Shown piece by piece: positions 44,314 to 44,627 of a stretch of DNA of 64,000 bases. Below the pieces are notes generated by a model. That model made no database searches and was not told the origin of the DNA. It worked only from the letters and a program-made list of their open reading frames with translations. Each line of letters starts with the position of its first letter. Position 1 is the first letter of the stretch. This stretch comes from a virus. A program made the position numbers and the translations under genes. The stretch lies in the IMG/VR virus record IMGVR_UViG_3300030108_004854, positions 1 through 64,000 of that record. The stretch is one strand, 5' to 3'.

Positions 44314-44460
44314 ATGCACGATTTACTTGCGAATCCAATTACTTGGATTATTGTTGCAGCTGCATCTGAAATTATTGCCTTATCTCCTCTTAAAGACAAT
44401 AGTGTTGTTCAATTGATTTTACGTGCTTTAGTTCAATTAAAGCCGTCTGTAAAAAAGTAA
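44314..44460 (+). CDS. holin-like small membrane protein
   Basis: 48 aa MHDLLANPITWIIVAAASEIIALSPLKDNSVVQLILRALVQLKPSVKK, near the GH19 lysin. Confidence 0.65.
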   Translation: MHDLLANPITWIIVAAASEIIALSPLKDNSVVQLILRALVQLKPSVKK

Positions 44461-44627
44461 AAGGGATTACTCCTCCAGACTCTGTGTTTCTTGCGACATG
44501 GAGTTTGAGAAGTAATCGACAAAGAATTAAAGATGAATTAATGCGTCGTAAAAATGAAGCATTAACAGGTTCTCGCATTGATAAAGCTATTAGAGATTAT
44601 AAAGAAAAAACAGGTTGGAAAGACTAA
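44451..44627 (+). other. candidate -1 programmed frameshift site and extension frame
   Basis: A_AAA_AAG at 44451-57, hairpin 44465-44517, -1 frame open to TAA 44625-27. Confidence 0.7.

Follow-up and report, generated by a model that had tools for sequence, protein, structure and literature searches.

A probable programmed -1 ribosomal frameshift in a small lysis-region gene encoding a membrane protein of marine cyanophages

Analysis of a 64,000-nucleotide (nt) stretch of viral DNA (IMG/VR virus record IMGVR_UViG_3300030108_004854, positions 1 to 64,000; hereafter the window) indicates that a gene for a small membrane protein, located in the lysis region of a marine cyanophage, very probably carries, at its 3' end, a programmed -1 ribosomal frameshift signal of the dnaX/IS3 type. 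It had originally been predicted from the sequence of the window that frameshifting at this site gives two isoforms of the protein, of 48 and roughly 104 amino acids (aa), and this core reading was supported by each of the comparative tests that were run. As judged from sequence comparison, the signal, the frame and the downstream extension (the tail) are conserved together across cyanophages. Taken together, the co-occurrence of signal and tail, the switch of the frame under selection, the tails devoid of start codons and the residues conserved early in the tail argue that the tail is entered by ribosomes coming from the short open reading frame (ORF) at a slippery heptamer.

In the window, the short form is encoded by an ORF at positions 44314-44460 (+ strand, TAA stop included), the 48-residue product of which is MHDLLANPITWIIVAAASEIIALSPLKDNSVVQLILRALVQLKPSVKK. 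The 3' end of this ORF reads GTA AAA AAG TAA and contains the slippery heptamer A_AAA_AAG (44451-44457, +) in the X_XXY_YYZ phase of the ORF, directly followed by the zero-frame stop codon TAA (44458-44460, +), which terminates the short form. The -1 frame opens at the last G of the heptamer (44457), reads VKGITPPDSVFLATWSLRSNRQRIKDELMRRK...KTGWKD over 56 codons and ends at a stop codon at 44625-44627 (extension with its stop, 44457-44627, +); tails homologous to this extension occur in 69 other loci. The predicted trans-frame product has 48 + 56 = 104 aa and the junction peptide ...PSVKKVKGITPPDS.... Sequence and translation agree on these points with the original prediction, which had described a 48-aa ORF with an in-frame A_AAA_AAG at 44451-44457, the open -1 frame with its stop at 44625-44627, a longer isoform of about 104 aa with its junction, and a first -1-frame ATG about half-way along the tail; this ATG was found at codon 29. 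The region 44250-44700 is identical in contigs from three sequencing runs (one from another study, the two others possibly the source runs), so the A-run is not an assembly slip; no RNA run was found that contains this stretch. A scan for promoters and terminators gave nothing beyond chance level.

Relatives of the gene were collected by a scan of viral contigs, from which the best 80 of 102 relatives were kept, and by a second scan with a fused relative as the query, which added 31. The resulting 112 sources comprise the window and the loci L001 to L112 minus L081; L071 was dropped as incomplete, leaving 111 loci, which represent 91 distinct stretches of 390 nt. An in-frame heptamer ending in AAG is present within the last codons of the short ORF in 77 of these 91 stretches (74 A_AAA_AAG, two C_CCA_AAG and one G_GGA_AAG), with the zero-frame stop located zero or one codon past the heptamer. 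A hidden Markov model (HMM) of the tail, trained on 20 of the 77 heptamer-bearing stretches, was searched against the three downstream frames within 270 nt. It matched all 77 loci with a heptamer, exclusively in the -1 frame, and none of the 14 loci without one, in any of the three frames, which bears out the expectation that homologues keep both the heptamer and the open -1 frame. Furthermore, the last base of the codon preceding AAA AAG is A in all 74 cases, although this codon encodes eight different residues (GCA 34, GTA 18, TCA 6, GGA 6, CAA 5, CCA 3, GAA 1 and ACA 1). With this constraint and the co-occurrence of 77/77 versus 0/14, conservation of the signal exceeds what the protein sequence requires. 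The three heptamers of the family coincide exactly with the three, A_AAA_AAG, C_CCA_AAG and G_GGA_AAG, that are the most efficient in Escherichia coli in the presence of stimulators, according to Sharma et al. (2014, PMC4066793).

The distribution of variability along the alignments changes at the same place. Indeed, column variability is maximal at codon position 3 of the zero frame upstream of the heptamer and, already from the first 24 nt past it, at position 3 of the -1 frame, with downstream entropies of 0.27/1.10/0.41 in the S-CBS1-type group (n = 47) and of 0.06/0.80/0.17 in the window's clade (n = 11). On this measure, purifying selection changes to the -1 frame right after the heptamer, in line with the claimed frameshift.

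A hairpin of 22 base pairs (7+3+12 pairs; 44465-44517, +) starts 7 nt 3' of the heptamer and is a candidate frameshift stimulator. This long hairpin, which had been noticed in the sequence, was confirmed by folding: its minimum free energy is -25.6 kcal/mol (z = -3.3) and none of 200 dinucleotide shuffles folds as well, while comparison with 200 synonymous-codon shuffles preserving the -1 protein gives z = -4.8, again with none as stable. A structure placed 5-9 nt 3' of the heptamer, as a stimulator should be, is thus found in the window and its clade, with a spacer of 7 nt, but not family-wide. In the clade, z lies between -2.7 and -4.8 in nine of the 11 members relative to synonymous-codon shuffles (the exceptions being L005 and L062), and 90% of the cells of the clade alignment are paired versus 24-60% when the partner is slid. 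Covariation is modest, with three hairpin pairs altered on both sides in this clade, and the inner stem of the window is in a different register from that of its relatives, the folding being preserved. Sub-lineages carry different local hairpins. Overall, according to folding and alignment, the hairpin is well supported within the window's clade and is not conserved across the family.

The same organization is found in cultured phages. A search of GenBank phages with the DNA of a 1.1-kb region gave no match; tblastn retrieved 12 records, and the relatives found in GenBank are the Synechococcus siphoviruses S-CBS1, S-CBS3 and KBS-S-2A, the phage S-EIVl and the T7-like podoviruses S-B28, 7B11-B and WH11-B. 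The heptamer and an open -1 frame are present in all six cultured phages examined (S-CBS1, S-CBS3, KBS-S-2A, S-EIVl, S-B28 and 7B11-B). In the six isolate records examined the two ORFs are never joined; the record of KBS-S-2A lacks an annotation of the tail and another record lacks that of the short ORF.

At the protein level, the short form matches phrog_22542 (unknown function; E 2.6e-22) over the whole 49-position profile, and 495 clusters of relatives of 26-84 aa were found in a protein collection, 99 of the 120 listed being exactly 48 aa long and none being named past 'hypothetical protein' among the matches listed. In-frame fused proteins account for five of the 17 longer proteins, to which P0022 and P0048 are added. 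This fused set (P0003, P0005, P0012, P0016, P0019, P0022 and P0048) agrees with the predicted slip product, and P0022 reads exactly as that product; the fused proteins are nevertheless not strong evidence, because they are few and errors in the length of the A-run could create them. Another ten of the 17 longer proteins result from zero-frame read-through, and in eight of these ten the tail aligns with the out-of-frame translation of the tail DNA; as the read-through forms were picked by a length filter, they say little.

Among the alternatives, the one that survives best, although we consider it unlikely, is that of two separate genes, in which the downstream frame is translated alone, either because ribosomes initiate at a weak or non-canonical start codon or because they reinitiate after terminating at the end of the short ORF, and no fusion is produced. 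S-CBS1 gp23, S-CBS3 gp22 and one coding sequence (CDS) of S-EIVl are indeed annotated as separate genes in GenBank, the start assigned to gp23 being a TTG, the ninth codon of the tail. Gene callers also yield products of 50-90 aa from internal starts, and in several loci a potential start overlaps the stop (GTG in L003, L006 and L007; TTG in L009, L084 and L085). In the window, the only early candidate start of the downstream frame is a GTG at codon 10 (44484-44486, +), which opens a 47-aa ORF and on which the original prediction was silent. This GTG is buried in a stem of -25 kcal/mol, that of the hairpin, and no purine-rich Shine-Dalgarno sequence is visible upstream of it on inspection. The clade member L004 has GTC at this position and a -1 frame of 78 codons without any ATG, GTG or TTG.

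The wider family also speaks against a separate gene. In 21 of 79 loci the tail contains no ATG, GTG or TTG through codon 48, and in three of them (L004, L037 and L078) the -1 frame is free of start codons throughout, over 78-91 codons; the check on whether the downstream frame has a start of its own thus came out in favour of frameshifting. In KBS-S-2A, the tail of which is not annotated, the first start codon comes at codon 52. When the tail is aligned on its own (alignment A4, 70 sequences), the near-invariant residues P6 and D8 precede the GTG of the window and are conserved ahead of any candidate start, and selection acts on the -1 frame from the heptamer on. Finally, a slippery heptamer would not be needed for reinitiation, whereas heptamer and tail are found together in 77 of 77 loci versus 0 of 14, and the third base preceding the heptamer's AAA AAG is constrained.

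Transcriptional slippage, whereby RNA polymerase would add an A within the A6 run and some mRNAs would encode the fusion directly, is less probable still, and we regard it as very improbable. The site is a run of six A, and rare metagenomic proteins read as an A7 version of it (P0022, ...KAKKELIPSDG..., as well as P0005, P0012 and P0016). Six A are, however, shorter than the runs known from bacterial polymerase slippage. Furthermore, the loci with C_CCA_AAG (L076 and L077) or G_GGA_AAG (L020, S-EIVl) retain the tail with only three A, the conserved G in seventh position and A in first position fit tandem tRNA re-pairing rather than a homopolymer, and a hairpin at 7 nt corresponds to the geometry of a ribosomal stimulator. 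In the available part of the recoding review of Atkins et al. (2016, PMC5009743), slippage is named for Thermus dnaX only.

The absence of any recoding, that is, a 104-aa gene broken by a mutation or a homopolymer sequencing error, or a chance open -1 frame after a Lys-rich ORF end, is barely credible: homopolymers are error-prone and AAAAAAG is common in the AT-rich window (38 copies), but comparison of the sequences already contradicts this reading through the same split in 77 distinct loci, the 495 short-form clusters versus five in-frame fusions among 17 longer proteins, the identity of the three-run contigs and a tail under purifying selection in the -1 frame.

Besides the annotated and overlapping starts mentioned above, several observations weigh against programmed frameshifting. 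AAAAAAG occurs in the window at chance frequency (38 copies observed versus 35.5 expected); the heptamer therefore says little by itself, and the weight of the evidence falls on the comparison of homologues. The tails of the podoviruses S-B28 and 7B11-B are open and alike but are not matched by the tail HMM. Only 27 of 77 loci have z below -2 relative to synonymous shuffles (median -1.1), and the alignment of 37 S-CBS1-type sequences has a consensus of just -2.8 kcal/mol, with no shared structure. According to Sharma et al. (2014, PMC4066793), the best heptamers without a stimulator shift at about 0.3% in E. coli, so loci without a hairpin may make very little of the long form. The S-CBS1-type loci would accordingly use other stimulators or else make the long form rarely. 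In addition, the shiftiness of AAG is governed by the tRNA-Lys set (Atkins et al. 2016, PMC5009743) and would here depend on the set of the host. The only tRNA gene of the window is that of a tRNA-Leu (anticodon TAA; 18698-18785, +); the window has no tRNA-Lys gene able to change the decoding of the slippery site.

Under programmed frameshifting, most ribosomes would read GTA AAA AAG and stop at TAA, which would give a 48-aa protein in which a single transmembrane segment is followed by a short basic tail. Some ribosomes, held by the hairpin 7 nt downstream, would pause with tRNA-Lys on AAA and AAG, slip back by one base so that A_AAA_AAG is read as AAA_AAA, re-read the G and continue for 56 further codons in the -1 frame. 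The product would be the 104-aa form, with the same membrane anchor followed by a basic, mostly helical tail, and both its C-terminus and its tail would be cytoplasmic by the positive-inside rule. The slip would set a fixed ratio of the two forms, and the pair could act in host lysis, with the long form modulating the short holin-like form.

Several features of the tail were examined on their own account. An AlphaFold2 model based on the tail alignment (mean predicted local distance difference test score, pLDDT, 85.5) has an extended start and one long helix over residues 20-52, and the net charge of the tail is +6. No PHROG family was found at E <= 0.01 with the S-CBS1 tail or at E <= 0.1 with the window tail; sequence searches of Pfam, NCBIfam and PDB gave no match for either the short form or the tail, and hence no solved structure matching the tail was found in the PDB. 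Only unnamed viral clusters, below 0.9, were obtained from the ESM Atlas, and the tail matches only 76 clusters among 1.84 billion representative proteins, mostly N-terminally truncated calls.

In most lineages the tail ends in a conserved ...(I/L)x(A/S)PW peptide, in place of which the window's clade has ...TGWKD. The metagenomic protein P0024 carries the C-terminal peptide of the tail, PPP.QIDDLHIK.PWN, three times in tandem, and L028, L034 and L057 have lost the middle part of the tail but kept its first residues and the end motif; judging from these sequences, this motif seems to form the functional core of the tail. In GC-rich relatives (P0026, P0029, P0030, P0068 and P0087), the open stretch of the -1 frame also reaches back beyond the heptamer, by up to about 36 codons, and gene-calling programs push the tail ORF back through the short gene. 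These upstream-extended calls look like artefacts, since the variability pattern gives no sign of selection on the upstream -1 reading.

The genomic neighbourhood, as read from the sequences, points to lysis. In the window, an endolysin gene (44865-45545, -) lies 405 nt from the short ORF and is convergent with the frameshift gene. Its product matches the endolysin family phrog_181 (E 9.7e-24) and the chitinase family phrog_14712 (E 6.5e-12), with no Pfam match at E up to 0.1 and no NCBIfam match; the label 'GH19' given to this lysin in the original prediction was therefore not confirmed by a curated family, the matches being to endolysin and chitinase-like PHROGs only. A lysin homologue, of one of two unrelated types, is found within 1.5 kb in 68 of the 90 other distinct loci. 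In eight loci without heptamer and tail, 2-31 nt separate the short ORF from the start of the lysin match, whereas in loci with heptamer and tail this distance is mostly about 190-260 nt, which places the start of the match where the tail ends. In S-CBS1, the gene order is tail fibre, a gene for an 81-aa protein with a transmembrane domain (TMD) and a coiled coil, short ORF, tail and endolysin. In the podoviruses, the gene is located between the tail-fibre region and the small terminase, a slot that we take to be that of the T7 holin gene 17.5 on the T7 map.

The short form has one hydrophobic segment, at about residues 5-26 (Kyte-Doolittle above 1.6), a Lys-rich C-terminus and flank charges of -1 (N-flank) and +4 (C-flank). 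It thus resembles a holin in being a small transmembrane protein with a charged C-terminus, the gene of which adjoins an endolysin gene. There is, on the other side, no match to holin families in Pfam (0), NCBIfam (0) or PHROGs, and in PHROGs the short form matches only phrog_22542 and phrog_15106, both of 'unknown function'. Two further points count against a holin role: the short form shows a degree of sequence conservation that is unusual for a holin, and the same cassettes encode other small membrane proteins. Of the suggestion that the two forms are perhaps a holin/antiholin-like pair, the adjacency to the endolysin and the single hydrophobic segment therefore stand, and assignment to a holin family does not. 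A holin/antiholin role of the two forms is a tentative proposal, somewhat less than an even chance in our estimation, in which the long form is most likely a modulator of lysis timing.

Other genes of the region could also be linked to lysis. Directly upstream of the short ORF, five isolates encode the 81-aa protein with an N-terminal TMD and a coiled coil (phrog_26178), which is gp21 in S-CBS1 (L081 2720-2965) and a CDS of the same size in L113, L114, L116 and L117. This protein has weak matches to a 'hemolysin' PHROG (E 0.0023), and a relative of it that is fused in P0010 matches a holin PHROG (E 0.002). The 81-aa protein is thus possibly an additional component of the lysis system. In the window, a 62-aa ORF (44783-44971, -) with a C-terminal hydrophobic segment overlaps the 3' end of the lysin gene and is conserved in seven loci; its product is another candidate holin or spanin-like protein of the cassette. 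A 52-aa soluble ORF (44624-44782, -) downstream of the endolysin is conserved in 23 loci. Just upstream of the short ORF, a 51-aa ORF (44131-44286, +), conserved in the window's clade (16 loci), matches the Pfam CP12 domain (E 1.1e-05, above the cut-off); match and conservation together suggest that a gene for a Calvin-cycle inhibitor adjoins the lysis genes. In S-CBS1 there is a 32-nt overlap (L081 3346-3377) between the end of the -1 tail frame and the start of the endolysin, so ribosomes making the long form would finish inside the lysin initiation region, and translational coupling of tail and endolysin is possible in this phage.

The mechanism proposed here is a known one, namely the classical bacterial -1 signal of dnaX, IS3/IS911 and phage G/GT; the gene class and the module differ. 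The tau/gamma system of E. coli dnaX uses the same A_AAA_AAG with a hairpin a few nt downstream, and obtains two products in a set ratio from one gene. In dnaX the shifted frame stops almost at once and the shift yields the shorter product, whereas in the cyanophage gene it would yield the longer one. The gene family and the biology are also unrelated, and no upstream Shine-Dalgarno-like stimulator was seen in the window. The shiftiness of AAG in the presence of a single tRNA-Lys is treated by Atkins et al. (2016, PMC5009743). The orfA-orfAB arrangement of IS3/IS911 elements is similar in that a short ORF ends just past a V_VVA_AAG heptamer, the -1 frame is startless and a fusion is made by slippage stimulated by a 3' structure; the same three heptamers are also the best ones there, according to Sharma et al. 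(2014, PMC4066793). Unlike these elements, the predicted cyanophage products are a small membrane protein and its extended form, encoded in a lysis region, and not parts of a transposase, and most of the cyanophage family has no detected conserved 3' structure.

Two phage systems are also comparable. The lambda-type tail chaperone G/GT is a conserved phage -1 frameshift that gives a short and a C-terminally extended protein in divergent phages, with a heptamer that varies by lineage. The lambda G/GT heptamer is G_GGA_AAG. The cyanophage gene differs from it in being a different gene, located in a lysis and not in a tail-assembly module, and in encoding a membrane anchor protein. In lambda S105/S107 and phage 21 S68/S71, one lysis gene gives two membrane isoforms differing by a charged extension, as is predicted here, and such isoform pairs are a known way to time lysis. 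In those systems the use of two start codons gives isoforms that differ at the N-terminus, whereas the cyanophage forms would differ by a 56-residue C-terminal tail obtained through frameshifting, and their holin/antiholin activity is putative.

Conserved phage frameshifts make up a short list (tail chaperone, capsid), to which the present site would add a new gene class. At the level of listings and abstracts, no paper was found that reports frameshifting in genes for holins or antiholins or in lysis genes of cyanophages, and the word 'holin' is absent from the first 300,000 of the 449,034 characters of the recoding review PMC5009743. In this family, a conserved recoding signal flags a small gene pair that ordinary annotation has missed, and it provides a compact, naturally occurring -1 signal with which recoding could be studied in cyanobacteria.

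Marine cyanophages turn over a large share of the ocean picocyanobacteria; to our knowledge, their lysis control is almost unstudied and their holins are unidentified. The site gives a testable hypothesis on lysis timing in these phages. In its widest form, which we consider doubtful, this hypothesis states that cyanophages of at least two morphotypes (siphoviruses and T7-like podoviruses) time their lysis through frameshifting, with the ratio of the isoforms fixed by the rate of slipping at V_VVA_AAG and with the tail serving either as an antiholin or to tether a partner. If true, this would be a mode of lysis control without a described precedent and, as the slip rate depends on tRNA supply and translation speed, the timing of lysis would be tied to the physiology of the host (light, nutrients).

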